A DNA stretch of 64,000 nucleotides. Origin: Balanoglossus misakiensis. Lineage: Eukaryota > Animalia > Hemichordata. A program made the position numbers and the translations under genes. The number at the start of each line of letters is the position of its first letter. Within the stretch, counting starts at the first letter, position 1. The stretch spans positions 4,154,305 through 4,218,304 of the forward strand of contig CM082577.2 of the NCBI GenBank assembly GCA_040954595.2. The letters run 5' to 3'. Positions 3,301-62,580 of this stretch are shown here, piece by piece. The notes beneath the pieces were generated by a model. It was not told where the DNA came from. It worked only from the letters and a program-made list of their open reading frames with translations, and did no database searches.

Positions 3301-6300
3301 AAAGCCACAGACAAGACCTTCTTGGAGAAGATGATCAACCAGCACAAGGGCAAGTCTGCCAACTTCGGCGTCCCATCTCTTGGAGGAAAGAAGAAGGAAA
3401 AGGAACATGAAGAGCATTTCTTGATTCATCATTACGCTGGCTCTGTAAGTGTACAAGACCTATCAAGCTATTAACCAAGTCTCGCGAGATCTCACAATGA
3501 GTGGAAAATAATCTATTACGATCTTCCATACTTAGTTAAGTATACATAAACTTGAAACTATTGTTTTGTCTGGACAGGTTGGATACAACGTTGAGGGATG
3601 GCTTGAGAAGAACAAGGATCCCCTCAATGAGAACTGTGTGGATCTCTTCAAGAAATCAACCAATAGCATGTGTGTTTCTCTGTGGGAAGACTACGGAACC
3701 GCAGCCAGTAAATACAGCTTTTCTTATTTTTTTCCCTCTTTTTTTTGTGTGGATGGAGTTTGTTGGTATTTTGCAGTGGCCATTTAATTATGTTTTTATT
3801 ATTATTGCAATAATTTCAGTTCTGTTCTTTGTTCAATTCTTATATTTCTTTGCTATTGGAACCACTAGCTATAAACCACATGCTTTGTGTGTATTTTAGT
3901 AATATCATTACTTTTTGTTACATTCTTATTTTTTATCATCTGAAATGCATTCAAAGTGATTTTGAGCTCAAATAGTTGTGGACTCACAAAAGGGAAGTTT
4001 TAACAACTTCATTCACTGCAGTCTGATATAACTACATTGATTTAACCCCTTCACTTCCACCACATGGTTTCATCCCCACCATTTCCTATGATGTGGTTTG
4101 ACCCATATGCAGAAAAAGTTTGGGGTGAAAGGGTTAAGTGACGCAGTTGAACTGGGGCAGAGAAAAAGACCCAGAACCAGAATTGCCTTTTGTCATCATG
4201 GTGTACGCTTGACAGTACCTCGAATTTTGATTTTAAAAAAAACAGGATGTTTTTCACACCATTTCAGAGACATCACCTTAACCCTTATCATGCTATTAAA
4301 CTTTGACAGTGTGATTTGTATGACTCTAACATTACATCTGACCAATAACTTAGGTGGAAGCCGTAAGAAGGGGAAGGGTGGATCCTTCCAGACCGTATCT
4401 GGAATGCATCGGGTAGGCACCACTATTCTTACTCATTACAAAGGAGAAAAACGTTACTGAACTGTTGACAGTAAAATGCCGTGTTCGTTGTTTTTTCTCT
4501 CTCTTTTTTTAGCTGGTGCAAAGAAGAAGAAGAACATCAAGACAATCAGTGGCGGTCATCTGGTTTGCATGATAGATTATTCCATCTTCAGTGTGGCTTT
4601 GGGGGTGTGAACCCTGTGGCCCCTCCCCTCCCTATTGATAGCTGCATGTGTAGAATTTTTTGTGTAGATTCGTAAAATCTTGCACTCACTCTTCTTGTCC
4701 AGATCAGAAGATTCATGTGTTAAATAATGTGATACTCGTTAACACTAAGTAAAAGACTCGACTCTCTCTATTCTAGGTTTATATAAAACACTTTCCAGTT
4801 ACACACACATTTACACACATATTGAAAATAAACCTTCATGACGCACTTCCAACTTGCCGATGATCGGGGGATCGAAGACTGCTGTTACAGCATCCATACC
4901 TGCACATACATTTACACACATTTCAGAATGAAAAGAACACTTGGTCAACTTCACACCCACAGTTTCACCCATCTTCACAGACACTTGTCCTGTGGATCCA
5001 GCTTGTTGTTCATTGATTTTTGAGACATCATCTGACGCCCCCTTCCCTCAAAACACACGCCCCCTTCACCCGATCATTCATGTACTTGACATAAAAGCTG
5101 CTCTACATCCCAACTATCATGCAAGTGCAATTTACTTGTTGGATTTTACTAATTTCTGTAAAATTCAAACACCACTGACTTTATCTGCTAGTGTGTATCA
5201 ACATTCACACAGCCATGTGTGACACTCTTGTGTCCATTACAGAAATATTCTGTTAACCCACTTCCTCCTCTAAAACTATCATCCTGAATAACCTAACTTT
5301 ATTCACATAACATGCTTCCCAAATCACCCCCCACCCCCACCCCAAAGTCTTCATTACCACTTTCCCAGCATGCCCCCACTTACCTTAGACTCAGAGTTCC
5401 CTCATGAAAGCCTACCCATAACCCCTTGCATGTACAAAGCAAGGCTGTTCCCAGCCAGCAAACCCCTTCCCACCAACGCACCCAGTCCAAACCCAAAAAT
5501 CATCCATGTACCTCCACTGATCCATGCATGTATTTGCACAATCCAGACCATTCCATCCAAATATCCCCCATATCACATCTTTTATCCATCACATCAACAC
5601 ACCATTTACACAGATAACTTATTATTTCTTTTCAATGTAATAGTAATATTAAAATCTATCATGATATCATTCTTCTATAATATTTTACTTTCTTTCCATA
5701 CCGCTATTAAAGTTACAAAATGTCTTTTTTCACACGTTAAAGACATCTCAATGTGTAAATTTATCAATTTCTGCTTCTGTTACATCACACATTTCTTGCA
5801 ATTCAGAAAAAATGGATTTGCTCAACCAATTTTCCATGCAATCTCACATTTTATTTTCTTATTGGCACAACAAGCTTCGATCACATGCAGATAAAACCGC
5901 CCTGAAAATATTTTACAAAGAGTTGCTTTCGTGATTGAGTAATATCTATTTTTTCTTGCTGTTGTTAAAACATCCGTTGATTTGTTATGGGTATTTCACA
6001 TGTGAACATATGTCATTGATCTTTGTCGATGATAGGCTGATTCCCAAATGATGTGGCAAATGTGTACCTCAATGGCTCTGTAGAATCCCTTCCTGTGGAG
6101 TATCTGCATAGTCTGTCTCTTGCATGTGCAGTTTATCAGTAACTGTGGCATGTATTTTTGTCAACTATGCCTGTAGCCTGTATATATGGATTTTGATGTA
6201 AGAAGTTGCCTGCAGCATAGCTGTTATGCGAAAGGGGATAAAAGGCTGCTTGGTGCAGAAAAGGGTCAAAGGTTCACCTTCTTACTGTAGCAAAAAGATA

Positions 6301-12300: not shown

Positions 12301-15300
12301 TTCACAAATGATCATCACTCAGAGACTACATGTACTAACACGCCATCTCTTTTTTCTCTGGCAGACTGAAGAGAGTCTTGAACGTGAGAAGAAAGCCCGC
12401 GCAGATCTTGAGAAGGCTAAACGTAAGCTTGAGGGTGATTTGAAGATGACGCATGAAGCTCTTGATGAAACTGAAAATGCCAAACGTGCCCTTGAAGATC
12501 TTGTTAAGAAGTAAGTTAAATCTTGTTGACAAAAATTACCAAAGTTAGCAACTTTTGACACTGGCTGAGCGAAGTGACAAAATCACAAACATCACAACTG
12601 GTCATTTCACAGACCAACAATGTGGTGGTTAGTGTTACCGGTTCGGAATAGTTAAAAGAGTCAAGGAACTAAATCTGTACTTTCATCTGTTCGCTTACAG
12701 GAAGGATGGTGAACTGAATGCTTTGAGCAGCAGGCTTGAAGATGAACAAAACCTGGTGAACCAACTTCAGAAGAAGATCAAGGAACTGCAGGTAATTGTG
12801 AGAGAGAAGAGTGTCATGTAAGAATGTTAAAGAGGAACAAATGGCAAACAGATGACATGGTTTGTGGTTGTTACAGTTGCCTATAGTGCTCAGGAAAATC
12901 GGTAAAACAAGTCTGGAATTGGCAAATACAGTACGACAAATTGGATTTCTGCTGTCAGAGATATAGAACATCTAAACAATGTCTACATTGTCAAATAATT
13001 TAGAAAATGTGTGTGGCATGTGAATAGGTGCGTCTGACCTGCAGTGGTCTGAACAGTGAACTGTCTTGTTATACTAATCTGCCAGCAGGTGTATACATGC
13101 TGTTGTGAACGTTCTGAGAGTACTCACTCTGGCTTTGGCTGAGAAATTGAGAACTGATGAGGAGTAGACGGAGTTGAAATGGCTGAGGAGGGGGGTAGGG
13201 AAGGAAAGATGACAATAGATAGGGTGGCATATTGACTGTTGATAGGGGGAGTCTGGGAAGGAGGGATTCGTGATGGGAAAGAAAGAAGCGAGAGGGGTGT
13301 AGCCAGAGTGGCATTATGGGAAGAGGGGAGTGGAGATCTCTAATGATTGTCATTCGCCCCCATTTCAACACTTGACGTGTGCCGCCATTGCACCATGTCT
13401 GCAAGCGCAAGTCAACCTTTACCAGCACTCCATTTCAAATGTCAGAGCTGGGGTAATTGAACCCCCCTTTGCCCAAAGAGCTGGGATGGTGTGTTTACAT
13501 GGTTGGGAAGTGAACCCTTCATGGGGTGAAATCAACAACTCAACAAGGCGTGTAAGTGACCTCAATGCTCCAATAGTTGCAGGCCAACTGTGAGGAGAGA
13601 CTGCCTCCTGTGGTTACAGTTCTATTTTTATCAAGGAAGAATAAACTAGCCACTGCAGCTTGTTTAATACTATTTATACAGACAAACAACCTTCTGGAAT
13701 TTTGACAAGCAGCTGATTTTATCAGCTGTTGATCCACAGGGTCGTAAACCACATCTGCATACACAGGTCTCCATAAAGTGAGAATTCCTGGTGTTAGATT
13801 TGTTTTATAATCGGACAAGGAATTTCAGAGACTTGTCTCCGATTTCCAGATGAATATTTGAGTGCTATTTCAGAAGTCATAATGTCTGCTTTGGAGACAT
13901 CACATTTTCAGACAAACTGTCAGTCAGTGCAACGTTGCATTTTACTTTGACAGGACGTGACTTTCATCGTGTTTGAAGAAAAAACGAGACAGTTGGAAAA
14001 GAATTCGCCCAAACAGTAAACTTGTACCATAAATTACGTCAATAAATTCCGGCTGCTCATTGTAATAATTGAAGTATGTTAACTGACAGATTCTGGTTGT
14101 TTAACGGGAATACCGCCTGTGCCTTCGCCCTTATTTCCAAACCTGATTGGGTCCCTCTCCTGCAGGTCAGAGGTCAAATCAAGTGCTGCCGTCATGGAAT
14201 TACAAATATGCAGATGAGAAAAACATAAACAACTTAGATATTAAATATTTGACTTCGGTTTAATAAAAGGTGCTCCAAATACTTGAGTGACCAAGATAAC
14301 AGAGTGACAAATTTTTCAAAAGTTATTTGATGATGGGATTTGTCAGCAGGAAGAATTGATACCAAATGAGTAATCCTGAAACATGACCCATGTTGCAGTT
14401 ATATAGCTTACTGTCACTTTGTGACCCAGACATTTGACTTATTCGGCCTATAGCCTCCCATGAACCAACGGGGTCAAGAATGTTGTCGCTATGGAAACAT
14501 CCCGGGATAATTGCTATTTGCCAATCATCTGGTTTTGTTATATACAGACAGGCATAATGACAACTTGAAAGGGATTTATTTTCATTGAAGGAAACAGAAT
14601 CTGTTTAATTATTAAGTAAGGGTTATCAGTTGTTGCTGGCGTAAAAATCTGATTGGCTGGGCGCCTATTTACCTGGATTGTAACCAGCCAGAGGGTGGTC
14701 CTCTGCTGGTATGTATCAAATAGGCGGTAAAATAGCATTAATGTAGAAACGCCCCACTTTTAGTCTCTCCTGAATTCATTTGCAACTGATTACAGATATG
14801 TATGTGCGTTTCAAACCGCATATGGTTGAACGCTGGCTGGCTCGGGTCAAACATAGTATTTTCTCGGCGCATTTACATAAATGGGCATGAGGAACACTAG
14901 CCACCGGCAGAAAGAGAACACCCTCAGAAACTTCCAGGCAGCGTAAAGGCAGGAGTTCAGTCTTCTTCATCTCCATTCTAGTCCTTTCAACCACCTGACA
15001 AAATGTCCGTCCCGGTTCAGTTACTGATCGATGTGAGTACCCAAAAACATTCTCTTCTACAGCAAGTTCAGCTACGGCAACTTTTTCCGCTGTAGCCACT
15101 GCTCTTGGTTTTCACCTGTCTTTCCTTTGCTTTGCTTTATGCATGAGCGACTCTCGATCAGTGATGTAGTTCACAGAGGCTCTTTAAACTATTGTAAATA
15201 TTGCCTAGTGTGGCTAAGGCTGGGCTGATCTTATGGGTCTCCTCACTGAGAAGTGCTTCTGCTAATCTATGGTTGTTCACTTATCATTATCAGCGGGAAT

Positions 15301-18300
15301 CAGCAAACAATACGTTATGAAACCTGCAACTTAATATACGCCTTGACATTATTGAGAACCTGGGCCGTATCTGGTGTAAATTTCTGATTTGCAGATTTCT
15401 AGGCCTTGACATCTTATAATCCCCATCAAGGTCTTTTGTGTAAAAGTATCCAAAAGACCTTCCGGACCGTGGCATTTTATACTTGAAATGTATTTGTGTT
15501 TTGACGATGAAAGCATCTGTGTATTAGAGAGTGGTTTTCTATGTTTTCCATTGTTGACAAAAGTTTACTGTGGCTGAAATATTTTGAAACGACCAAACCT
15601 ATGAATTTCTGAATATATACAATAGCCTAGCCTTCCAACTTCCTGAATGACATAAAAGTTCGCAAAGGAGACTTGTCACATTTTTTCTAATTGTTTTCAG
15701 GAGTCCATTACAAATATAGCCATATTTCAATCATTCAGCGACATTTTCTATGTTGTCGGCTAAAGCCAGACATGATTCATGCAGAAGGAACTTCTTTACC
15801 GTTCAGTTGAATATTTTTGATCTTGTTCATGAAATTCCTCGCATTATTCTTCGGGTCTCAGAAGAATTGAGTTTGCCTCAGCGGGCATCTACAATAAAAA
15901 TTTTATTGTAAAAATTCTTGCGGGTAAACATAGTTGAATGTTTAGTCAGTCTAACAGATGGTAAATACACTCAGCAACCTTTAAGTAATCAAAAAGACTG
16001 TAATGTTGGCATATGTTGTTGACCTATGCTGATTTTGATAGGGTAAGAATTTCCTGTCTGCATTTGGCACTTTGGTTAAAGCAAATTTGCACTCAAAATG
16101 TTGGGGGTTATTTTTAGTTTAAATTAAAAGTCATTATATGTCAGTTATTTAAATATTTATTGATTGAAGTGGCTTCTCAGCTATTTTTTGACGGTTGGTC
16201 CAAATATTATCAAACTGTGTGCATGTTTTCTTGCATGTAGAATGTTTGGCATCGTCAACAGAGCAAAGGTGACACGTTTTTACTGTGTTTGTCGGTGTGT
16301 GGTAAAATTGTATCAAGCTATGAAAATGATGAAGTCAGCATGTCGGCATGATAGCAGCTAGCTTATATACATAATGGGCTACTGGTAGCATCCATCATCA
16401 GTATGTGAAGGCTCATATACCTGCCAATAAAAAGATATCTGTCATGAAGTGGAGTCGAATTAAATTCTCAAGTGTCGGGAGGGAAGGAATTGTCAGTGAG
16501 ATTGATTAACGATTTCGGGCATTGATTGATGAAGTAGTACAGTGACATGTAACTGTTCCTTGACATGTCACACAATCCAATGACATTTCCAGTTTTGTCG
16601 GTTTCTGTTGCCATGGCCGAGGGTTATGTGTCATTGGTACATTGCAGACATTTTAAAGGACTGAGGAAAGGCTGCTCGGCGAAATAGCATTTCAGGTCAG
16701 GGACGTGTACGACATGACATGACAGCATTTCAGGCATATTCGACAAGCATTTTATAGAAACTGTAAAAATTGTGAATTATTAGATTTCATTCATTTTGGG
16801 GCATTACATTCCATGGCCCCATTTGGAGTGTCTGGATGTGAACTCTGGTGCACGAGTGATGCTGCGAATGCGTGATATTTTTGCTGGACGTTGGCTGGAA
16901 TTCGTGTGGAGTCTATGAGGACGTTGTGCAGCGACGTCTAGCTGGTCTCGGGTTACTCATTATCATAGAGTGATGTGCTGACTGAGAGCTCTGGTATCCA
17001 AATAGAGAAAGTGGAATTCAACAGCTGATCCCAGACATGCCAATTCCATTTATGGTTGCATACCAAGCCAGTTATCTGGGACGTGACATCTAGGGTTGTC
17101 CTATCTCTCGGGCTCTCCCATTGGCTGCGGGCGTGGCCTGTCTTCAGTGATGGGTACTTGTATGTAGGGTGATTTGCATTTAAAGTTAGTAGCAAGAAGC
17201 CTGTTGGTGGCACAGTCAGCATTCACGCTCTTACTTAGGGGCATGCCTCATAGAATTCTCTGACTTTGGACAACTCGGCCTACTCTGAAGGAAAATATAC
17301 TTTGTCACTGGTGGTGACCTGACTTGATAGTCAACACAGTACCTGCTGCTGCTGCTCAAATTTTTTCTGCCAGTCTTCGAGGATATCCCAGACTCCGGAT
17401 TATCCCTGCCAACATGTCGATGAGTTCCTTGGATATTAGCTCTTGGAGCGATGCCGGTCCCAACGTTTCCACGACAACCTCTGGAGGGGGCACTTACCAT
17501 ATGCGCCAGACCTTCGAATCCAAAATGACACAGAGGGGATCGTTCCAAAAATTGAGCCCAAAATCACGGAAAGTTCTGCGACAGAGTTATGAAATGGGAG
17601 ACAGTGCAGTTGGGCTAAGACATATCTTTGAAGTAGGAAACTCTTTTTCTCAGCTGCTAAAGCTTACAGTAATTGCCTGATTCCTAGTTTTGCAGCTTGC
17701 CAGACTGACTGAATGAAAGTATGCTATTATTTGTGTATATGTGTTTTTTTTATGTGTTTTGTTTAGACTAATTACGTTCCTTATGTTAACTATCAGTAGA
17801 AATTTTGACAGGAGAAATCCACCAGCGGCATACTGATTACTAATGAATGAATCATTAAAAAAATATCTGCACAGCTGGGCTTAGATGTAGTTATTTTTTA
17901 TTTTATTTTTAAGAAGGCAGGAGTTATGTTATCGCAGTAGATCTTTAAATCACGGAGACATTGTACTGACACAGTTCTTAATTAGCCCTGCTTGCCAGAG
18001 ACTTCAATGGATGATTATTAACTGCAATTGTTAAGTCTACTGCTTGGAATGCGTCTGCTAAGTTGTGTGAAACAAACCATGTCATCTGGAGAAAGTCTTT
18101 GATCTTCTTGGTCAAAGATTACAATGTATTTTTTGTTCAGCTCACATTGTGTTTTGAGCTCACTGCCCTGTTTTGTTCCGAGAAGATCATTCACTCAAAA
18201 AAACAACTTTGAATTCTGACAGGCCCGTATTGAAGAACTAGAAGAAGAGCTTGAAGCAGAAAGACAGGCTCGTGCTAAGGTGAGTTATGATTATTATGTA

Positions 18301-21300
18301 TACATATCTATTTTTGATAATTATATTCCATTTATGGAGAAGGGATAAGATACTTGACTTGTATGCCCGTCAGTTATGTTTGGAGTCAGGCACATACAAG
18401 ACATTCCTACGAGTTCAAATTACCATGTATGTAGCATTGGTGTCAGGGAAGAGCAATAAGTGGGAAGGGCCAAAGTATGGAATCCGTGGCATTATGCATG
18501 ATAATTCCTAAGGAGAAGGTTAGGATGAAAACATTCAAGGCAGAAGGATGAATCACCGAGGAATTATGAATCTGGATTAACAGTCCAAGTACCGGAGCAA
18601 TGTGACCCCCCTGTATCCAGTCTTTATTTGCTGTTTTGTCTGTGGACGGTGGATATTAATAGAGATGTACGCAATAGAGGCTAAAGCGGGTTACCACTAA
18701 TTAGGTATTGAGGCATCCCTGAGGAGATTTCAAACCCTGAATGCTAAATATTTCAGTGGACTTAACAGTTAGCTTAGAGGAACGAGAATTGATGAGCGTG
18801 GGGCCTGCATAGGTGACATATTTTACATTTTCATCATTGTTTTTAATGACTGAAATTGGACATGTCCGTCCTCGGACACTTGGGGGAAATAGTCAGGGAG
18901 TGGTATAAAAGAACCGAGAGATGCTTTGGTCATTGGAAATTTCATTCAAGATTTTGAAAGGGGGACATGACTAGTGGCAGTTTGTCCGGCAAAAGTTCAA
19001 CTCCTCAAGTGTTGACTGAAAATTTTTACTACAACGTCCCGAAGAGGGACCCCAGAGTGGGACCTGCAGAAACACAGACTTGTAATGGAAACTCCACAGT
19101 CTATGCGTTTTGTCAGATTCACAGTGTCAACAGCCTTTTGTCCGACATATTAAAAGCAGCTTTCATTATAGAATGAATGGGGCCCTTTACAAGACAGACA
19201 TGGCCCAAAAGTTACTCGCCTTTGATCACTGTAGCATACCAAGCCATTCTTGTCACATGCAAAACAGGGCCCCGGTTAAATAAGAACCCTCACTGACAGA
19301 GGGATGGGAGTGAGTGCCTGAAAGGTCATGACCCCAAACTCTCTGATGTGTACTTTATGGCTGGCGGCACAGTGTTTATACTCTCTCTCTGAAAGCCAGT
19401 GATTTCACCGGCTCTCACAGATCTGGCCAATAACACAGAAACTGCCTCACATACCAATCTAAATTTAGACACTTTGTGCATAGCCGTTCCCATTACAACA
19501 CAACACATGTCTAAATGAAAAGATACCGGTCGGATTTTTATGCGACAAGCGTCTCTTTTAATTAAAGTAAAGCCAGTTATATGGACAGGTCTTTCTATTC
19601 TTAGACACCACTTGATACCGTTTGGAGAGGGATGTTTTTGACATCTGACACCAGCTTACTGGCACACCAGGAATTCAAGGCTTTTAGCTGTTGTAGCTCA
19701 TCAATTTCTCGGCCAATAATAAACACAGCAGTCTTGAAATGTAGCTGACCCGACCTTAAAAGTATCAACTTGAAATACCTCCTGCTTCTGACGGTTTACG
19801 CTTTTGCTCATCTGCTACATGGAACAAACTGAGATTCTTTGCATCCTTAAAAGGCTTGGAATGTCAGTGGAAATGTATCCAGTACCCCAACCTGGACTGT
19901 TGCTAGAAATATAACAGCAAAATTATTTCCCCTCTGTATCTTTTTTGCTAATCGGGTATTCCATCTCTTAATCATTTAAGAGTTTCTTTTATTACCTGAG
20001 AAGTTCCTGTTAATGATATAGTTACAAAATAAACAATATAAATTTCTTGACAAATAAACAAATTATAAATTACTCCTTTCAAAATTGTTTCTTTTACCAG
20101 CCTTTTCTAGTGTTAGGATTGAATGAGAGTTTACAATTTTTTCCCCATTTCTTCCAAACTCAGGTCGAAAAGCAGCGGGTAGATTTGTCTCGTGAGCTGG
20201 AGGACCTGAGCGACCGTCTTGAGGAACAAGGTGGTGCAACAGCCGCTCAGATTGAGCTCAACAAGAAGCGTGAAGTCGAATTAGCCAAAGCCAAAAGAGA
20301 AATTGATGAGGCCCACCTCCAACATGAAACTATTGCTGCTCAACTCCGCAAGAAACACCAAGATGCTGTTGCTGAACTCAGCGAACAGCTGGATCTGATG
20401 CAAAGAGCAAAGAACAAGTAAGTCAGAATTCTCCATTGTTGGTCCTCCCTTTTCTGCTATACTTGGCAATTCAGTCAATTGGTATACACTCATGTTTACT
20501 GTCTCTTACCTCCCGCAGGTCTGAAAAGGAAAAGAATGCACTGAAAATCGAATGTGATGATTTATCATCCAACATTGAAATGCTCCAAAAGGCCAAGGTA
20601 ATGAAGCTGTAGCTATGATGATGTTCAATACTTGGTAGTGTGTTCCTGGAAATACTTGAGAACTGATTTTACCAACTTTGTATACTTGTACAAATCATTG
20701 TATGCAATTCTTCATTTCCACAGTCCCAGGCTGAAAAAGTCAACCAACAGATCAATGCCCAATTGTCTGATGCCAACCTGAGAATCGACGAAAACATCCG
20801 CACCATCAACGACCTGAACTCCAGCAAGTCTCGCCTTGCCCAGGAAAACGCTGACTTGAACCGTCAACTGGAGGAGAGCGAGAGCCAGGCTGCTCAACTC
20901 AGCAAGGTTAGAGTCAGTCTCACTGCCCAGTTGGAGGAAGCCAAACGCGGTCTGGAGGATGAGGCCAGATCCAAGTCTTCTCTCGCTGGCCAGCTGCGCC
21001 AGGCTCAGGCCGATTGCGACGCACTGCGCGAGCAGCTGGAGGAAGAAGCCGACAGCAAGAGTGAATTGCAGAGGCAGCTCTCCAAGATGAATTCCGAACT
21101 CCAGGCCATGAGAGCCAAGTTCGACGGTGAAGCAGTCCAGCGTGCAGAGGAACTTGAAGAATCCAAGTAAGTGAAATCATTTTGGCTTCTTTCTGAATGC
21201 TTAAAGAGGGCAGAGGTGCACACAGTGGATCCCAAGGATTTTGCTGGTCACCCCTGTAGAAACAGCCTGGACACCAGTGTGCACTCTAAGCCAAACACCC

Positions 21301-24300
21301 CAAACTCACTCAACAAACTCACTGGTGACTCAAGAAAATTGTCCACACTACATGCAAAGGTATAGGGCCAACTCAGAGAAATTTTTAGAAATCCTCAAAT
21401 TGACTCAAAGCTTTTAAAAACTGCGTTTGTTGGAGGGCACACTGCTGGGCACATTAATTGCTTCTTTCAATATACCGATGATGCATTTTCTAATCCCCCC
21501 CTCCCCCTCCCCGACAACAGGAAGAAGTTGTTGATCAAACTTAGCGAGGTTGAGGAGGAACTTGACCAATTCAAGAGCAAGTGCAGCAGCCTGGAAAAGA
21601 CAAAGCATCGTCTCCAAGGTGAAATTGAGGATCTCTCAATTGATGTTGACAGGGTGAGTTTCTCTTCTTGTTAGTTCATGTACATGTAGATAAAAACTGC
21701 TGCAGTTGAATTTTGAACAGGTATAGATGGAACACCAATGGTAATGCATTAAATCGTTATGATTGTCACCCGTGCACAGGCAAATGGTTTGGCCCTATCC
21801 CTGGAGAAGAAGCAACGCAACTTTGACAAGACAATCATGGAATGGAAGCAGAAATGTGACGAGCTTGCCGCTGAACTCGAGGGTTCCCAGAAGGAGGCTC
21901 GCTCATACTCTGCTGAGGTGTTCCGTCTCAAGAGCTCATACGAGGAAACCATTGAAACTATCGAAATTCTGAAGAGAGACAACAAAGGACTTCACGGTAA
22001 TTTACAAGACTTCTATAGCATTCTATAGATTTTGATGCTTCAGTAGAATTCAATAGACAAATGGTCCAAAACTGTTAAAAGATGTACTTAGAGTGAACTC
22101 TGGTATAAAAAGTGTTTCTACCAATTATGCCCATCCTACAGATGAGATCGGGGACTTGACTGACCAGCTTGGAGAGGGTGGTAAGAACGTCCATGAACTT
22201 GAGAAGGCTAGAAGGAAGTTGGAGATGGAGAAGGAAGAACTACAGAGTGCCCTTGAAGAGGTTGAAGGTCAACTGGAACAGGAAGAAGGAAAATTCTTGC
22301 GCATCCAACTTGAACTCACACAAGTCCGCCAAGAAATCGACAGACGCCTGGCAGAGAAAGAGGAAGATTTCGAAGCCACTCGGTGGGCTTGCTACTTAGT
22401 TCAATACTCTTATTCTCAGAAATGTGAAATTAAGCAGTCCTGGCAGATTCTGACCAATCAGTCCTATACTCGTGCTTAAATCTTACAAAAAGAAGAAAAA
22501 ATTCTCTCTTTATCTTTCTGTCTTTCGTCTTTTTCCTCGTCAAAATCACTGTCCAGTGAAATTTCTCTATCTTCTTATCTTTCCATTTCTCCTTCTCAGT
22601 ATATTTCAGTATCTGCCATTGCTTTTCACATCATGCATGCAGAGTGTTTGCTCTTCTTTATGTATGTGGTTAACCCTTTCACCACAATGGTTTGGTCCAA
22701 ATCCATTATTTTCTGTGGGAAATTTGGACCTCCATAGAGGGAAACAGGGGGTGAAAGGGTTAAAACTATTCTAAACAGAACAGACACCCAGGAACCTATG
22801 GTCCTAACCTGTCCCATGATTTATTACTGGGATATAGGACGGACACAATACTGACAAAAATGCTTTCAGTGAAAAAAAAATCAGCGTTCATGCCTAAATT
22901 ATCTTCTATGGCATAAAAAAAGTTTAAAGTGCAAAAAAGTCAGCCCTTATGCTTCAATTAACTGTTCTGGGATAACAAATCAGGGACCTGCTGTTGGGTG
23001 TTTGGTTCTGATTCATATGCTTGGAGGTGTGTATTAATTCATAGTTCTGTTTTTGCGCATTCCTAACATTATCACCAGACAGTACTCTTTTCTGTACTTG
23101 AACTACTGCATGCAATATTTCCCCTCCTGTTCACAAGTGTGTTATTCTACTCTCTTCCTGCTCTGCGTTATCTATGTTGGACCGACTGTCTGTGATGGAG
23201 TTTGGCATGACTGCGACAGTTTCTTGACTGTTATGAGAAGTGTGTACTAAGTAGACTGTCCATCAAGCGACTCTTGATTTTCACGACATCTGTTGTTGTT
23301 TTTGTTTTGTGAATCCCTCTCTGCATGTCCCCACAACATCACGACGAATCCTCACCTGCAGTACCTGTAATTTCCACCCTGAATTGTGTTCACCTGTCAC
23401 TAACCAGCTCGACTAACCACTGCTCTGCCCGGAGTACTGGCATTGCAGCTTATAACATCCATTTCTCCATACAACATTGCATGAAAAGTTAGAGGTGTTT
23501 CATTCAGTTATCACCATGTCACAAGAAACGTTCTTTTCTATCAGCAAAATGCCAGAAATCAGTCCCTGTGATATCTTTCTGGCATTGTTTCTGATTGACA
23601 AATTAGTTCTTAAAAGGGAAACGATGTCACCTTTACTTTCTGTGATAAAGATAATTGTAATTATCATGTTTATTTTCACAAATTGCATGAGTATCATCTT
23701 CATGTTCTGAACATAAAGCACAAGCACAAAATGTCAACTTCTTTTTGTCAAAAAAGCACAGAGAGATGCAAAACTGTCAAGTTATGAACCGAATATTGTT
23801 ACAAGCTGCCTCACACTGACTCCTGTAAACCTTAATAATACTAACAAAAAAAGCACACGACACCTTCACATTCACACAGCACCTGCACATTTTTTAATCG
23901 CCAAACTACCTTGTGATTGTTACCACCAAACAGCAAGAACCACCAGAGAGCTCTGGAATCGATGCAGGCTAGTCTGGAGGCCGAGACAAAATCCAAGAGC
24001 GACCAGATGAGACTTAAGAAGAAACTGGAGACCGAAGTCAATGAACTGGAAGTTTCTCTGGATCACACCAACAAGGCACACGCCGAAGCCCAAAAGAACA
24101 TCAAGAAACTACAACTGCAGATTAAGGTTAGGAAGCCCATGATGGCGATGTTAAAAAGATTTCTGGAAGAGAACACTAACCCTTTTCATGACCAAGTTGC
24201 TCAAACCCCGTAGTCTTCACTACAATGTAGGTTGGGTAGAGCTCGGTACAGGGTGAGGCACAGTGGTGACAAACTGCAGCTGGTTGCAAACAGCTTAGGT

Positions 24301-27300
24301 GCATGTAAGAGTGAGTTGTCGTTTCAGGGTGTGTGGTGGTCTGTTTAATATGTCGCGATGGTATATATGTCACTGTGAATAATTCATGGATGCATGGTCT
24401 TGTAAAAATGGTGGAAGGTATAGTTCTTGTGTTGTCTGAATAGTTTAGAGATGGTTGGTTACATCTTCAAGGGATCCTGAATGGTGGCAAAGAGGATGGT
24501 TTTGCCAAGATTCATGTGCATGAATGAGGTGCAAAAAAGATGAAGTATGTATTGGGTGTCATGGTGATTTCAAGTACAGGGTTCAAATTAAGGAAACCAC
24601 TTTTCAAGATATTTACTGTGGATGACTTAATATCAACATTCTTCTAAACTAACACACGCTGTTGTTTCTCTCATACTTAGCTTTCTTTAAGGATGTGTGA
24701 GTGAAGGTAGGAATTGTCTCCATCTATTAACACCTTGTCATTGTCACTGATGAAGGTCATCATTAACAAAAGAATGACTGTCCTGTTATTTGTATCAAGT
24801 CCAGGAAAATCAGAAGTTTCAAGTTGTCTACACCAGCAATGTGATTTAGTAGAATTTTTCGCAGAAGATTTTACCATTTCCTAACGATTTTGTGCTCAAT
24901 CCTGGGTATTTTGAAAGAGTATTTTCTACCTGAGTAATGATGACTTGTAAACTTCAATTCACCTGGACTTGATACATCTCCTGTTCCTCTTTGAGAAGAA
25001 TGTATGAACATTTTGTTCCTCAAATTTCTTGGATAACAGGATATGCAAACCCACATTGAAGATGAACAGCGTGCTCGTGAAGATCTGCGTGAACAACTCC
25101 AACTTTCAGAAAGACGCAACACCGGTCTGAATGCCGAAAATGAAGATCTCAGAGCTTCATTTGAACAGGTCAGTATCTCTTTCACAGATCTACAGCATTA
25201 TTTGTGTATTTTCCAGTTATCACTGATGGTGGATATTTGGTGATTCAGTTTACTGGCCTGTTTGGCTCATCTCTACATTTGTGTTTCTCTCTCTCTCTCT
25301 CAGGCTGACAGAATCCGCCGTCAAGCTGAAGGTGAACTGGGTGATGCCAATGACCGCATTGGTGAACTTGGCACCCATGTCAGCTCACTGACTTCAGGCA
25401 AGAGAAAGGTTGAAGCCGAGCTGGCTACTCTGCAAGCAGAACTTGATGAGGCCATGGCTGAAGCCAGAGTCAATGACGACAAAGCCAAGAAAGCAGTGTC
25501 TGACGTAAGTATCTAAAAATTTCCTCTGATAAACTTTTGTCAATTTTTTATCATGTAATGGGGTGTAACAGCTTTGGATTCGACCAGAAATTAAAAAAAA
25601 AATTGAAAATATCAAACACAACACAACTACAATATCAGTGAGCCACATTTCTGTAAACTTTTCGCCTCATCTTATTTCAGTGTGTCAGAATTGCCGAAGA
25701 ACTCCGTGCTGAACAAGACCATGCCATGCACGTGGACAAGATCCGCAAGCAACTAGAACTGCAAGTTAAGGATCTTACAGCCAGAATTGAAGAAACTGAA
25801 ATAATTGCATCCAAGGAAATCAAGAAACAACTTAGCAAATATGAACTGAGAGTGAGTACTCTTTCACATTCTGAATATTGGAGAGACTTGTACTTCACGC
25901 TATTTCACTACCATAAGCTTTCGATAAAAACATGATTTTTTTCTTTCATGATAAGACAGAATATCAGAAATTGAGTGACAATTTTCACCTCTGAATTCCA
26001 GATCCGTGAACTAGAAATAGTCATAGAAGAAGAACGCCGCCACCGTGCCGAGAGTGAAAAGAACATGCGCAAGTCTGAACGCCGCGTCAGAGAAATCCTC
26101 ATGGCACAAGAAGAAGACCAGAGGACTGCTGAACGCCTTCAAGAACAGATCGAGAAGTTGAACATGAAGATCAAGACTCTCAAACGCCAACACGAAGAGG
26201 CTGTAAGTAGACTGTGTATTCAATTGACTGGAGCTGTGTGGTTCATGTATCGTCATACTTCTTGAATAGTGAATAATGCTGATTTTGCTGAAACCATGAA
26301 ACATCCAAGCCATCTAATGTGACAAATTAGTGTTCATTTATGCAAATTGCATGAATGAACAATGTTTCATTGTTACATTTTGATGATAATCAACCATTAT
26401 CAATGGTCAGTATATACGGACGTATACCTCAGATCATGCCTTGCATAATCTAAGCTAGATTTAAATGAATCCCTGTGGCCCAACAACTGCCTCTTTCCCC
26501 ATCCACAGGAGGATCAAGCAAATATCAACCTGGCCAAATTCCGCAAAATCCAACTGGAGCTGGAAGAAGCCGAAGAGCGTGCTGATATTGCTGAAGGTGC
26601 ACTGGCCAAACTGCGTACCAGAAACCGCAGCCAACTTGCCGCATCATCATCTCGCTCCAGTTCGGTGAGTGTTCCAACTGAACTGTGCGCCGATTACTTA
26701 CGTTGCTACACAGTTCACCAGCTGCAATGAGCTGAAAGTGCTCATTCACAAAATCCTAAAAAACAGTCTGATCTTTTCAATACCGAAAAAAAAGTGAAAT
26801 GTGTAGCATCTGTGGGAATGACTTACTTGTGTATCTTCTCTCCTGCTTGCGTACAGTTACTCAGGCCATAAACGGGTAGTAAGTATAGAAGATGGCCGCT
26901 CTCATCAGACTTTGATCACCTGAAAGACACAAGGCAATGCTTCATCTCAAAACTTGTAAACTGAAATCATGCAACTGTTCCAGCAATGGCACAGAATATT
27001 TCAGTGATGCTGATAAAATTGCTGATTTGCATCCATTACAAAATTTATCTTAATCTGTTAGAATGGGCTCTGCTGTTGTCATGTCAGGTGACTAAAGTGC
27101 AAACACAGACACTGGAATTATTGTCCATCTCGCTATTCTCAATGCTGTGTGTGTGTCTCTTGTTTGTGTGTTATTTCTCTCCTCCTATTTCTCTCTCTTC
27201 TCATTCTCCTTGTCAACTCTTACGGGCTCATTGCCACGAAGAAGGTGTCTATATCAGCAACCACAAGCAGCAAATAGAAACAGCTGAAAGTCAACTTTAA

Positions 27301-29209
27301 ATAATCAATCAGTACCCAGTAAGTTCTTTCACGTTGACACACGTAAAGCCTGCTGCCGCCTCCCCAGCAAGACCGAGCATCGCTTTGACAAAAAAAAATT
27401 GCAAAGAGTGTGTGGTGTAGGTTGCTAGTACCATCCTTTTGTAGTAATTTACTAGGAAGTGTTTCTCTCTCTCTCTTTCTCTCTCTCTCCATCCGTTTTA
27501 TCTACCCAATGCGCAGTCCTCCTACACAACTGGTTCTGGTGGTGTCATTGTCAAAAAAACATCCCGAACCCTGGTGACAGAACATGAGTCTTCATAAATG
27601 CCTAGTTGTTGAAAGATGGTAAATACTCTCCCAGCATGTTAGCTATAGTGGGCATTTCTTGTCCGTGCTACGCCGCATGCTATGCTCTCTCATTTTTCAA
27701 CCTGCTTGTCTTTCATCTTTCACTTTTCTTTTCTTATCTGTTTGTAGCATGACTCACTATTGTCTAGAATACTGTCATTTCAGTGGATGGGATTTGCCTA
27801 ATTTACATGTTACTACCATCTTTAGCAGATGGAAACAGATTTATCACGTCTAGTGTAGTTGTTTCTCTTTCGCTACTGTATTTTGTTGGATAGACAATGG
27901 GAATTGCATTGTGAAAAAAATTGATATCTTACCACGCCAAATCACCTTGGTTACTGTTACCATGGTGAAAATGGATTTATTTAGTTTGTTACTTAGGGTG
28001 TGGCAAGACTGGGTCAACTCCAAGATACAGTAGTGTGTATTGGGATGTAATATTGGCATTGAAGGGGCAAATCTGTCCATAATCAAAGAACTAGCCAACA
28101 TGTTAACAAATAACAGTCACATCAATTATTTCTTTTGGTCAATAGTGAACACCGAAAAGGTACTATACATGCATACTGTTTGATCATTCGACTATACAGT
28201 ACGAAAATTGCATAATATTCCATGATGCCTGATGAATGAACCAATATGGTGGTTTGCTTTATGGAAAAGAAATGTAGTTAGAGACACTTGATTATGATAC
28301 ATGAATGTTCAGGCATTGAAAGTGAATGAAAATGCATCAATCAGGGTTGGCTTTCCAAGTCTGTGATATGAATTTTTTTTTACTGAAACAAGAGAATGAT
28401 ATCAGAAAATTCCTGGTATTCTAAAAAAGATTATAGAATCTTTAAATAATTTCCTCCAAAACTATTTTGTTATATGATGAAAGAAAGCTTGCCCAATGTG
28501 CATGGCATGTGATGTCATGTGTAACAACTATCTTAGAAACTGCCATTCCCCCTTCCTTGAAACTTGACATGGTCTTGTTTGGAGTCAAAGGAATATCAAG
28601 TTTCAAGGAGCGCAGGAATAAGTTGTAGAATATGCAGGAATGATGTTCAGAGTTTATCAAGTTGGTGAAAATTGAATGAACTTAAATGTTTTGTGAGCGT
28701 TTTCATGAAATAGACAGTTGTGTTTTAAGTAGTTAAACCTCTCAATGTAGAGCTGTGTTCAGTGGATTCTTCTAACTTTGCTCTGTTTTGCGTTTGTCAG
28801 ATAACGCACTACATATTCGCATTGCTGTAAAAAGTAAAAAATGAAAAACACTGATGGTAAACTTAAAATAAAAATATTCACATTGAATTTAGCTTCATCA
28901 ATCCAATTTGCATAACAACCCATAGGACAACTTCTGAGACAAATCCTGAAATTTACCAATAGATCTTTAAATATGGAGTATACGCTATTCACACTACTGG
29001 GACCTTGTACATAACATGATAGCCTAACATGAATAACAATTAACTCCAGTCTTTATGTTTTTGCACTGTTTTGCTGATTTTCTGTCTCTTTTCTCTCTCA
29101 GGGTGGCTACTTAAGATCATCGTACTCGCCACGAAGTAGTAGTGACCGCTTTAGTGATCGTGGTAGCATCGGATCGCCATCCAACGGGGGAGATGAAGAA
29201 GAAGAATAA
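393..29209 (+). CDS. Mhc: Striated/sarcomeric-type myosin II heavy chain, multi-exon, 5' end outside window
   Basis: Phase-consistent GT-AG exons: 393-485 ([17 protein letters not shown], switch I), 794-857, 1070-1272, 1405-1543, 2048-2166, 2622-2942 (LDIAGFE switch II, relay), 3256-3444, 3578-3707, loop-2 exon 4354-4412 or 4513-4562, 7404-7609 (PHFVRC, SH1/SH2 [18 protein letters not shown]), 7986-8106, 8497-8633, 8928-9009 (IQ, WQWWRLY), 9253-9426 (KPLL, rod start), 9749-9829, 10176-10304, 11584-11706, 11900-11986, 12365-12510, 12701-12791, 18223-18279, 20164-20417, 20519-20597, 20724-21166, 21521-21653, 21780-21996, 22142-22382, 23934-24126, 25040-25168, 25304-25504, 25681-25851, 26002-26202, 26509-26664, last exon 29102-29209. 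Confidence 0.97.
1586..1679. mobile_element. About 90-bp piggyBac-like MITE (TTAA-CCCTTTCACC...GGTGAA(A/G)GGG-TTAA)
   Basis: TTAA at both ends and CCCT/(A/G)GGG termini typical of piggyBac; related copies at about 2220-2314, 4042-4137, 22670-22763, 38483-38558, 46816-46909 and 54845-54934; fragments near 24177 and 60109. Confidence 0.8.
4354..4412 (+). CDS. Myosin loop-2 exon, variant A: (S)[19 protein letters not shown]
   Basis: TAG acceptor 4351-4353, GTAGG donor 4413; phase 1 in and phase 0 out fit exons 3578-3707 and 7404-7609; canonical KK..SFQTVS..HR loop-2 motif. Confidence 0.93.
4513..4562 (+). CDS. Myosin loop-2 exon, variant B (mutually exclusive): (T)[16 protein letters not shown]
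   Basis: Strong polypyrimidine tract and TAG acceptor (AG 4511-4512), GTTTG donor 4563; same phases as variant A; paralogous Lys cluster and T(I/V)SGxH motif. Confidence 0.75.
7672..7842. mobile_element. Tc1/mariner-pogo-type MITE (TA-CAGTAAAACCTGTCT...AGACAGGTTTCACT)
   Basis: Imperfect terminal inverted repeats after TA; a partial relative at about 61830-61960 shares AAAAGAACCTCTATAA and ends AGACAGGTTTTACTG-TA. Confidence 0.6.
8724..8818. repeat. Two-copy tandem duplication (about 52-bp period) in a myosin intron
   Basis: CAGTTGGTACTTGATAATGTCCACACTGTC..GTCTCTGCC occurs twice. Confidence 0.8.
9520..9670 (-). mobile_element. Degenerate tRNA-derived SINE fragment
   Basis: The minus strand has a B-box-like GAGTTCAAGACC followed by CCCTTGAGCAAGGCACTTTAC, resembling the CORE domain of MIR-like SINEs. 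Confidence 0.45.
9871..10034. mobile_element. pogo/Tigger-like MITE (TA-CAGTCAAACCTGT...ACAAGTTTGAATG-TA)
   Basis: TA-flanked imperfect TIRs and internal repeated TATAGACAGGT / AGGTGGCC units. Confidence 0.55.
17022..17225 (+). promoter_or_regulatory. Candidate internal muscle promoter inside the 5.4-kb myosin intron
   Basis: E-box CAGCTG 17022-17027, perfect CArG box CCATTTATGG 17046-17055, reverse CCAAT (ATTGG) 17120-17124 and GC box GGGCGTGGC 17129-17137, all just upstream of the 17414 ATG exon. Confidence 0.55.
17414..17632 (+). CDS. Alternative first coding exon of a headless myosin-rod isoform (catchin/myorod-like), 73 aa
   Basis: GCCAACATG start context; [73 protein letters not shown] followed by a GTAGG donor in phase 0, in frame with exon 18223 ([14 protein letters not shown]). 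Confidence 0.75.
22670..22763. mobile_element. Copy of the piggyBac-like MITE, opposite orientation to the 1586 copy
   Basis: TTAACCCTTTCACC...GGTGAAAGGGTTAA with an internal sequence matching the reverse complement of 1586-1679. Confidence 0.8.
26857..26871 (+). CDS. Candidate alternative myosin tailpiece exon 1 (LLRP*)
   Basis: Pyrimidine tract plus TACAG acceptor ending 26856; phase 0 after exon 26509-26664; stop at 26869-26871; GT donor candidates a few nt downstream. Confidence 0.4.
   Translation, partial: LLRP
27242..27277 (+). CDS. Alternative myosin tailpiece exon 2 ((K)[10 protein letters not shown]), stop-containing cassette extending to 27318
   Basis: Very long pyrimidine tract (about 27150-27220), tandem AAG/AAG acceptors ending 27241 and 27244, phase 0, Ser/Thr-rich peptide, GTAAGT donor at 27319. 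Confidence 0.6.
   Translation, partial: KVSISATTSSK
29102..29209 (+). CDS. Terminal myosin exon, long tailpiece [35 protein letters not shown]
   Basis: Strong acceptor ending 29101, phase 0, Ser/Arg-rich then acidic non-helical tail; AATAAA at 29759-29764. Confidence 0.85.
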   Translation, partial: GGYLRSSYSPRSSSDRFSDRGSIGSPSNGGDEEEE

Positions 29210-33110: not shown

Positions 33111-33795
33111 GAAGATTCACCCGAAATTACACAATTTACACCCCAGATTTGATTGTAAGACTTGATTTAATCACAAACTAAATTGTTTCGGTGTATTTGT
33201 GGCTTTATTCTTCGGAAACCAATGAATTTACGTGCATCGCGCGGGATGTGTAATGGTGGATTCCGAACTAGAAATGTGTGTCACACATTTACCGGTATTT
33301 TCACTATCCACGTTTTGGTGACTTGAAGTCATCCTATGCCTTTATATACGCTCGGAAATGCATAAAAAATTCCACAAAAAGAACATATCGCGTAAGAAGG
33401 AAGCACAGATCGTCAAGCAAGAAATTACCGCATTCGTCTTGCTGTTGACCTTGTAAGTTTCTTTCGTTTTCATCGAGCCGCCCTACACGTACACGCGACA
33501 TTGACCCCCAAATTAAGGTCAGTATCGCTTGTGTAACTGTAGTGTACATATACTATGTAAATCCTCAGACCCTAAGCACCATAGACAACAAAAACAACGA
33601 TTATTACCACCACAAGCATGTTGACAGAACAACATAATAGTACTTTGCAGCTAATTCACACTTTGGTTTAAGGTGGTATAAATAGTGTCATCAAAGTACT
33701 TAGAGATTTGGCACCAACTTATGTTAGAATAATTCACATAGTATAATATATAAACATTTTGAAACATTGGTTATTGTTTGTACAGATCACCAACC

Positions 33796-34225
33796 ATGGA
33801 TGATTACAAGACAGCACCATTTGATGCCAGATTTCCCAACCAGAACCAAACAAAGAACTGCTGGCAGAATTATGTAGACTACCACAGATGTCAGAAAGTC
33901 AAAGGAGAAGATTATCAACCCTGTGAATACTTCAAAAGGGTATACAAATCACTCTGCCCACTGAGATGGGTAAGTTACACAATTTCCCTCCCGACATTTC
34001 TCAGTGTTATTCCATATATATACATAAAGCTGAAATGCACTGGCAAACTTCACACTTGCAGACTTTCGTATGCTGCTGAGTGCAGGCCAATAATGGCTCG
34101 TGGACGCTTCATGCAAATGGGACCTAAAAACTTTACAGATTGTTTTGATTTTGTCCTTTTCTTCTCCACAGGTTGAAAATTGGGATGAGCAGCGTGAAGA
34201 AGGTACCTTTCCTGGCAAGATTTGA
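33796..34225 (+). CDS. COX6B1: Cytochrome c oxidase subunit 6B (75 aa; coding exons 33796-33969 and 34172-34225)
   Basis: [27 protein letters not shown]...[14 protein letters not shown]|[17 protein letters not shown], with four conserved Cys; AATAAA at 34315 and 34494. Confidence 0.97.
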
Positions 34226-55207: not shown

Positions 55208-56216
55208 GAAGCGCTAACAACGATACACTTCAGCAGATTTCAATATTTATCAGAAACTTTATGGCAGTTCTTTATGAAACTATAATTCTTAATGTTTTTC
55301 ACTTGCACCTGCTTGGATATTTCAAACTTGTGCATGGTAAAAAAATTCTTTGTTGAGCTGTATGTGGCTCAGCTGTATTTCAGTTATCATGCACAAATTC
55401 AAACGCAGTTTGGATAAGTTTCTGCTTTCACTGAAATTGTGCATTTTGATCTTATTCAGCATTCATAGATGGTCCCTCAAATACATGCTGATTTGCTATG
55501 GTCTGCAAGACCTGACACAATCAAAAAACTATTGTATAATAGAAAATACAGTGTTCATATTTTTTCAAGCTCATGTCATTTACTGGAAGTTTCAACCACA
55601 ATTAAAGTATACTTTCTATGTTTTTCATGTTAAAATTTCATTAAGCAGTAAATTTGTTGAAGTATTTTGATGCACAGATTATAACTATGAAAATTTAATT
55701 TCTTAGTTGGAATATAAATCAGTATAAATTCCTTTCATTAGAGCCTGTAATTGAATGAACAGAGACTCAATCTCTATTGCTGCTTTTGTTGTATGAAATA
55801 AAGTAACACAATTCTACTTGACGTACTCGTGTGCCTTATTTTGTTGATCTTGCGTGTACGATAGACCAAGACCAAACACATTCTTATTGGACATGCTGAA
55901 CCTCAAGTGATGCAGTTGATCACAGGTTATTTATTACACTCAAAGAGTAAGACTGCATATAGCCAGAGCAATCAATGTAAGAAATATTTTTCAGTAAAAA
56001 TACACCACATTTAGATGCGTGTGAGGGGATAGCGCCCTCTGTGGCCTAGGTGACCTCGGGATGACCCTGGGAGGGATGACCGGGAATGACCCCATCAGCT
56101 GACTGGTAATTCGTACACTTGTTTTCTGTGACTTCAAAGTCGAAAAGGGCTCGAGATCGGTGTCAGCCGCTGATAAGAATGTGACATACACATTGGCGTC
56201 AGAAGTGGCAGCTAGA

Positions 56217-62200: not shown

Positions 62201-62580
62201 AAGGTTAACCTTACAGTAAGTGAAATTTTGCACATAGCTCAACCAAAAGAAATTAAATTCAGTGTTTGATTCAGTTGATCACCATGCTCCAGATGTGGAC
62301 AAACACAAAAGACAGTCAGTCACCCGTTATTTGTTTATCTTTTCAGGTCACCAAGGTAACCCAACAAGGCGACAAAGTCTTTGATGTCGAGTTGAAGACC
62401 GACAGCATCACAACTTTCACCTGGCTGGAAGCACTGGGCATTGCGGGACGTTTCTCTGACAACGGATTTTTGATGACAGCGCCAACTGCAAAAATCAGCT
62501 TTTATGCCTGGGAGAAAACCACCGTTAGCGATCTGCAGAAAGCTCTAACAGTGAAAACATACAACAATATGAACGAGTGA
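56217..62580 (+). CDS. MANBA: Lysosomal beta-mannosidase (GH2), multi-exon, with signal peptide
   Basis: [35 protein letters not shown], acid/base WSGNNENE (about 59758-59781), nucleophile [38 protein letters not shown]; stop 62578-62580. Confidence 0.96.
60638..60735 (+). CDS. MANBA duplicated exon, variant A: [33 protein letters not shown]
   Basis: TAG acceptor, CAG|GTACT donor, 98 nt, phase 1 in and phase 0 out. Confidence 0.85.
60874..60971 (+). CDS. MANBA duplicated exon, variant B: [33 protein letters not shown]
   Basis: TTTTCAG acceptor, CAG|GTAAA donor, 98 nt, same phases as variant A, gap-free alignment to it. Confidence 0.85.

Follow-up and report, generated by a model that had tools for sequence, protein, structure and literature searches.

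A predicted alternative first exon in the muscle myosin heavy chain gene of Balanoglossus misakiensis: a probable short-headed catchin homologue in deuterostomes

Can the muscle myosin heavy chain gene of a deuterostome also encode a headless rod of the catchin (myorod) type? This question is raised by a long intron in the muscle myosin heavy chain gene of the enteropneust hemichordate Balanoglossus misakiensis. Catchin was described by Yamada et al. 2000, as known through PMC3912159, PMC12040844 and PMC4410989, and in the available part of PMC12040844 it is given as a unique head followed by 830 rod residues, with masses of 106 and 113 kDa. The DNA analysed here, referred to as the window, is a stretch of 64,000 nucleotides (contig CM082577.2, positions 4,154,305 to 4,218,304) that contains the myosin gene, the 5' part of which lies beyond the window. 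An initial annotation had placed a nested headless catchin/myorod-like gene in the longest myosin intron. This intron, 12792-18222, is 5,431 nt long, and exceeds all others between the myosin exons mapped in the window (next longest 2,838 nt). The exons on either side are as follows.

12702..12791, + strand, last upstream exon of the full-length myosin, the donor of which competes for the acceptor of 18223
18223..18279, + strand, first shared rod exon, 19 codons, phase 0, belonging to the full-length myosin and to the predicted headless form; the same exon is found at 2152 in L001, the related locus described below
20164..26664, + strand, twelve further rod exons, which with 18223-18279 give 825 open codons and no stop
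26857..29209, + strand, four candidate alternative tail exons at 26857, 27245, 27517 and 29102, encoding 4, 10, 26 and 35 aa

The rod encoded by the 825 codons is 89% identical to that of Ptychodera, 78% to that of Glandiceps and 71% to that of Saccoglossus. A single rod exon of 147 aa is 82% identical in Ptychodera flava and Glandiceps talaboti, 75% in Saccoglossus and about 60% in echinoderms, and the matches of a rod exon in a PDB sequence search were all myosins. The tails at 27517 and 29102 match tails of Ptychodera isoforms well; those at 26857 and 27245 appear to be tail exons from their position and a weak similarity. The four candidates parallel the four tails of the Ptychodera isoforms. 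Depending on the tail, the predicted headless chain would have 902-933 aa and 103.6-106.8 kDa, with 829-860 residues common with myosin, in agreement with the annotated estimate of an 825-aa rod plus a tail of 4-35 aa, about 900-933 aa and about 105 kDa in all. The junction corresponds to about residue 1103-1106 of Ptychodera myosin, inside the rod.

Several other elements were observed in the window. We take an exon just downstream of the myosin gene, 33790-33970, to resemble cytochrome c oxidase subunit 6B, and exons of the + strand within 56100-62580 presumably resemble a beta-mannosidase gene. The long intron also holds three short ATG frames, 15003-15032, 13486-13551 and 16013-16042, which end at the strong phase-0 donors GTGAGT, GTAAGT and GTAAGA; they are possible further first exons or may be due to chance. 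CCAAT-like words lie near 14650, above the frame at 15003-15032. Four other ATG-to-donor frames of the intron were compared with the 1 kb that precedes the exon of L001, and none matched. Further upstream, 4356-4412 and 4512-4562 are two alternative loop-2 exons of the myosin motor, matching different Ptychodera isoforms. They are probably the mutually exclusive pair described for Saccoglossus and sea urchins in the available part of PMC3912159.

The frame on which the headless reading rests starts at an ATG in the context GCCAAC-ATG and ends in phase 0 at the donor GAA|GTAGGA, after 17632, from which it can be joined to 18223. Its length of 73 codons and its Ser/Thr-rich character, with 20 of the 73 residues being Ser or Thr, are as first annotated.

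17414..17632, + strand, coding part of the likely alternative first exon, ATG to phase-0 donor, 219 nt, 73 codons; homologues are L001:1026-1226 and P0286
17546..17632, + strand, conserved last 29 codons, comprising a basic segment, Ser58 (17585-17587) and a Gly-Leu cap before the rod
17633..18222, + strand, intron of 590 nt predicted from sequence, from the donor GTAGGA to the shared acceptor; the counterpart in L001 begins with GTAGGC and has 925 nt

Taken alone, this ORF hardly exceeds what chance gives: in 23 of 500 shuffles of the intron there is an ATG frame of at least 73 codons that ends at a phase-0 donor. Neither the 73-codon exon nor the L001 exon has a match in Pfam. A word-indexed protein search with the 73-codon exon (proteins of 129-2000 aa) gave 23 candidates, none of which scored, and by blastp the exon is without a match to the myosins compared.

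Relatives of the exon were found in two places. A phmmer search with the 73-codon exon over 1.84 billion representative proteins returned two matches, P0286 and P0287. P0286 is an unnamed ORF without genomic context (E 7e-5). Its identity to the window exon is 55% over the last 31 residues, with 94% similarity; the similarity stops at the same point and is followed by Val, as expected for read-through of a GT donor. P0287 (E 7e-4) was set aside as a tandem-repeat ORF. When metagenome contigs were scanned with a two-sequence pattern, 284 stretches matched, and one of these was confirmed. This is L001, the rod exon of which is 89.5% identical to that of the brittle star Amphiura over 86 residues and 65-76% identical to those of the other ambulacrarians tried. 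In L001 a frame of 67 codons runs from an ATG at 1026 to the donor CAA|GTAGGC, and beyond the intron the 19-codon rod exon of the window is found again.

The last 29 residues of the window exon are identical to L001 at 18 positions and to P0286 at 17. When all 973 stop-free 29-codon frames that end at a GT in the window were compared with the end of the L001 exon, this frame scored 18 of 29 and the next best scored 7. At the DNA level the window and L001 are 56% identical over the last 31 codons and 30% identical in the intron after the donor, and blastn of the window against L001 found no match in the exon or its flanks. The mismatches over the last 31 codons are distributed 14/7/20 over the three codon positions, and 12 codons are changed synonymously. 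The substitution pattern and the frame ranking show selection on a protein in this frame, ending at this donor. Coding-type conservation of the ORF in related species, which the initial annotation had set as a check beforehand, is seen in the comparison with L001, and judged by its sequence the 73-codon exon is a real, conserved coding exon. The window exon, L001 and P0286 all begin with Met and a similar Ser-rich start. Of the four kinase-type sites proposed in the exon, L001 and P0286 both retain the Ser residues of RQS (Ser58) and LSPK; RQT, RGS and the LSPK proline are not conserved.

The end of the exon is also similar to mollusc catchins. Kollmar and Hatje 2014, Fig. S3 (PMC3912159), gives the catchin exons of Lottia, Crassostrea, Argopecten, Aplysia, Biomphalaria and Mytilus, and the six exons in this figure end at the same junction as the window exon. 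In an ungapped comparison anchored at the junction, the last 29 residues are identical to the six mollusc sequences at 12, 9, 8, 11, 12 and 12 positions, a hand count on the published figure and not a run alignment. By this count the junction-proximal end of the head is similar to that of the mollusc catchins. As controls, 83 other distinct 29-mers from above this junction in the proteins compared score 0-5 and the window's own upstream myosin exon scores 1, and with a background of 8% the binomial tails are 2e-3 for 8 identities and 1e-6 for 12. A 10-column motif taken from the mollusc figure has one match in the window and 0 in 2000 shuffles; it is given little weight because two of its columns were relaxed after the window sequence was seen and because it misses P0286. 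According to the part of PMC4410989 available, Thr141 is the site of smooth-muscle MLCK in mussel myorod. Mytilus Thr141 aligns with Ser58 of the window exon, which is kept in L001 and P0286; the position is Ser in 3 of 3 ambulacrarian-type sequences and Thr in 5 of the 6 molluscs of the figure.

The window gene resembles catchin/myorod, as far as the sources describe it, in a unique ATG exon within a myosin intron, an in-phase donor and an identical junction. The predicted product has about 830 rod residues common with myosin (here 825 plus 4-35 aa) and a similar mass; its head is Ser/Thr-rich, with similar last 29 residues and a Ser at the Thr141 position. There are differences as well. The Mytilus catchin head has 156 residues (figure of PMC3912159; PMC12040844, in part), whereas the ambulacrarian-type heads have 67-76 aa and that of the window 73 aa. 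The central head block conserved in the six mollusc catchins of the figure has by eye no counterpart in the 73-aa exon, and in L001 and P0286 at most a faint short echo. Unlike the molluscs, the host is a deuterostome, for which the literature consulted, in the parts available, reports no catch muscle. Because the exon is conserved in L001 and aligns without gaps to the mollusc exons at the identical junction, it looks like a catchin homologue and not a mere equivalent. We consider with good confidence, on sequence grounds, that it serves as first exon for a deuterostome catchin homologue with a short head. The catchin-type reading of the initial annotation is supported at the genomic level; the nested gene is not, since the exon is likely to be an alternative first exon of the myosin gene and not a separate gene within it.

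Other explanations of the exon were weighed. An ORF that arose by chance, or a duplicated myosin exon in decay, without a product in either case, would agree with the frequency of such frames in shuffled introns and with the lack of a Pfam match, but is largely refuted by the coding-type conservation with the echinoderm-like locus. A decayed duplicate is further contradicted by an identity of only 1 in 29 to the window's own upstream exon and by the blastp result, and we find this explanation hardly credible. The exon might instead be an internal cassette that adds a Ser-rich, non-helical segment to the rod of the full-length myosin, or a poison exon serving to lower its expression. Weak in-frame AGs inside the ORF are compatible with this, as is an acceptor-like tract above the ATG.

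17360..17373, + strand, T-rich tract with an AG, out of frame, 40 nt above the ATG; possible acceptor of a 5'-UTR intron

L001 has a comparable out-of-frame T-rich tract with an AG at 980-999, 26 nt above its ATG. However, all five AGs between 17300 and the ATG at 17414 are out of frame, including that at 17372-17373, for which this had been noted before. Splicing of the exon that ends at 12791 to 17374 leads to a TAG after 21 codons, and an in-frame stop lies 33 codons above the ATG in the window and 8 codons above that of L001. The common beginning with Met and a Ser-rich stretch in L001 and P0286 speaks against a cassette, and preservation of this reading frame is not expected of a poison exon. 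None of the 12 hemichordate isoforms examined exceeds 1964 aa. A cassette or poison exon is very unlikely. It could also be that the exon is a real first exon of an ambulacrarian headless rod that arose independently of mollusc catchin; the junction would then be shared because a phase-0 intron is convenient there, and the similarity would come from convergent evolution of a basic kinase site and a helix cap. Headless rods have arisen repeatedly, Drosophila MRP having another junction and Lottia Mhc8 being a separate gene without the exon (PMC3912159, in the sections available), and the central block of the mollusc heads is absent here. Against this stand the 8-12 identities in 29 ungapped positions with exact junction spacing in six of six molluscs, compared with 0-5 in the 83 controls, and the coincidence of the phospho-acceptor position. 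Independent origin is in our view improbable. If the preferred reading, a homologue of catchin, is right, shared ancestry places the exon before the divergence of molluscs and ambulacrarians, and from these sequences catchin is likely to predate the protostome-deuterostome split.

CArG boxes bind SRF in muscle genes, and a group of promoter-like elements including such a box lies above the exon.

17040..17185, + strand, candidate internal promoter: CCAAT and perfect CArG at 17040-17055, reverse CCAAT at 17117-17127, GC-box-like element at 17129, TATA-like TTTAAAG at 17179

The CArG at 17040-17055 is the only perfect one in the intron, with 7 in the window. L001 has upstream elements in the same order, at 495, 569 and 651, its CArG-like site having one mismatch. 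At both loci a CCAAT word abuts the CArG or CArG-like box, a reverse CCAAT follows 74-77 nt further on and then TTTAAA. A collinear pair of 9-mers is shared between the upstream regions of the window and L001, as in 15 of 2000 shuffles; a single shared upstream 11-mer is not significant alone (64 of 1000 shuffles). A uORF of 6 codons at 17243 lies inside the predicted leader and was counted against the best reading. We infer that 17040-17185 may act as a promoter.

In the proposed mechanism the CArG/CCAAT/TATA-like promoter would start a transcript near 17205-17215, about 200 nt above the ATG; alternatively, an upstream non-coding exon would be spliced to 17374. The transcript would be spliced from 17632 to 18223 and encode a predicted chain of 104-107 kDa without motor, lever arm or the beginning of the rod. 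Because it keeps the filament-forming C-terminal half of myosin, the chain would be expected to dimerise through its rod and to co-assemble with myosin in thick filaments, which would lower the density of heads and expose a Ser-rich head of basic character. If mussel myorod is a guide, this head would stand out from the filament surface and attach to actin or myosin, and phosphorylation of Ser58 would switch the tether, tuning ATPase activity and held tension in smooth muscle. The available parts of PMC12040844 and PMC4410989 report that the unphosphorylated head peptide of mussel myorod bundles actin and that phosphorylation raises the actin-activated ATPase of myosin. Hemichordate muscle is mostly smooth (PMC5888912, in part).

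The annotations examined contain no headless isoform. The RefSeq-type myosin models examined for three hemichordates are all full length (7 of 7 in Ptychodera, 4 of 4 in Glandiceps and 1 of 1 in Saccoglossus). A search for rod proteins of at most 1077 aa revealed no ambulacrarian headless form among the best 120 of 1616 matches; such a form would score 169-242 bits, the cut-off being near 148. Among these best 120, 105 have the junction motif and none of the 105 a catchin-like head, and the remaining 15 were judged on residues 1-45 only. Since mollusc catchins would reach 138-159 bits, close to the cut-off, their absence from this search is uninformative. Ten mollusc and unnamed myosin clusters had no catchin-length member, and the short members of echinoderm myosin clusters were fragments without the junction. 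An 881-aa stickleback model, P0282 ('myosin-16 isoform X2'), begins 12 residues above this junction; it is likely to be an annotation artefact, although it does place a headless vertebrate model at the position of catchin. The lack of headless ambulacrarian models supports the novelty of the exon, the expression of which stays predicted.

In the sections available, myorod is called exclusive to molluscan catch muscle (PMC4410989) and specific for bivalve catch muscles (a 2025 review, PMC12040844), and a term search of a 2026 paper (PMC13762225) gave no mention of echinoderms or annelids. Kollmar and Hatje examined Saccoglossus and echinoderm genes, and the portions of PMC3912159 consulted show no catchin exon for them. 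Our literature search, with subscription papers outside its coverage, found no paper that links catchin or myorod to deuterostomes. It is the deuterostome host that makes the finding new.

Other headless rods differ from the predicted form. Drosophila MRP (Standiford et al. 1997, via the available part of PMC3912159) is likewise a headless product of the myosin gene with an internal start. MRP, however, starts right after the motor and light-chain domains, at the first exon that follows the latter, and is about 260 residues longer, whereas the window junction lies further down the rod; as far as that source goes, the MRP head is not conserved even among insects, whereas the end of the window head is conserved across phyla. 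Lottia Mhc8 is a rod-only product that begins at the same position, but in the same source it is a separate duplicated gene without a unique exon, whereas the rod exons of the window are common to the full-length myosin.

Paramyosin, like the predicted form, is a headless thick-filament coiled coil. In protostomes it comes from a gene of its own with a diverged rod and begins close to the same rod position; in the window the rod is encoded by the exons of the full-length myosin. The acorn-worm 'paramyosin' is said to be of about 100 kDa and to have been identified by paracrystals and antibodies. A headless rod of 104-107 kDa could pass such tests of size, paracrystals and antibodies. Paramyosin has been reported from sea cucumber, sea urchin, sea lily, acorn-worm smooth muscle and amphioxus notochord (PMC8945602, in part), and reference lists give titles on acorn-worm and echinoderm paramyosin (Sonobe 2016, Obinata 2014). 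The paramyosin-like protein of jellyfish is a different case because it is less than 30% identical to myosin rods (PMC5958069, in part). A wider reading, which we put forward tentatively and with more doubt than belief, is that catchin is an ancestral product of the bilaterian myosin gene, that the 'paramyosin' of about 100 kDa of acorn worms and echinoderms is a headless isoform and not the product of a paramyosin gene, and that protostome paramyosin may descend from a duplicate of such a transcript.

A homologous exon in hemichordates and echinoderms would shift the origin of catchin to the protostome-ambulacrarian ancestor. If the exons are homologous, catchin would be a general component of thick filaments that was later used for catch. 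The short deuterostome head would single out the 29 residues surrounding the kinase site as the core of ancient origin, and would offer a minimal version for the idea of a myorod bridge. The predicted mass fits that of the deuterostome 'paramyosin', and the exon bears on the identity of that protein.
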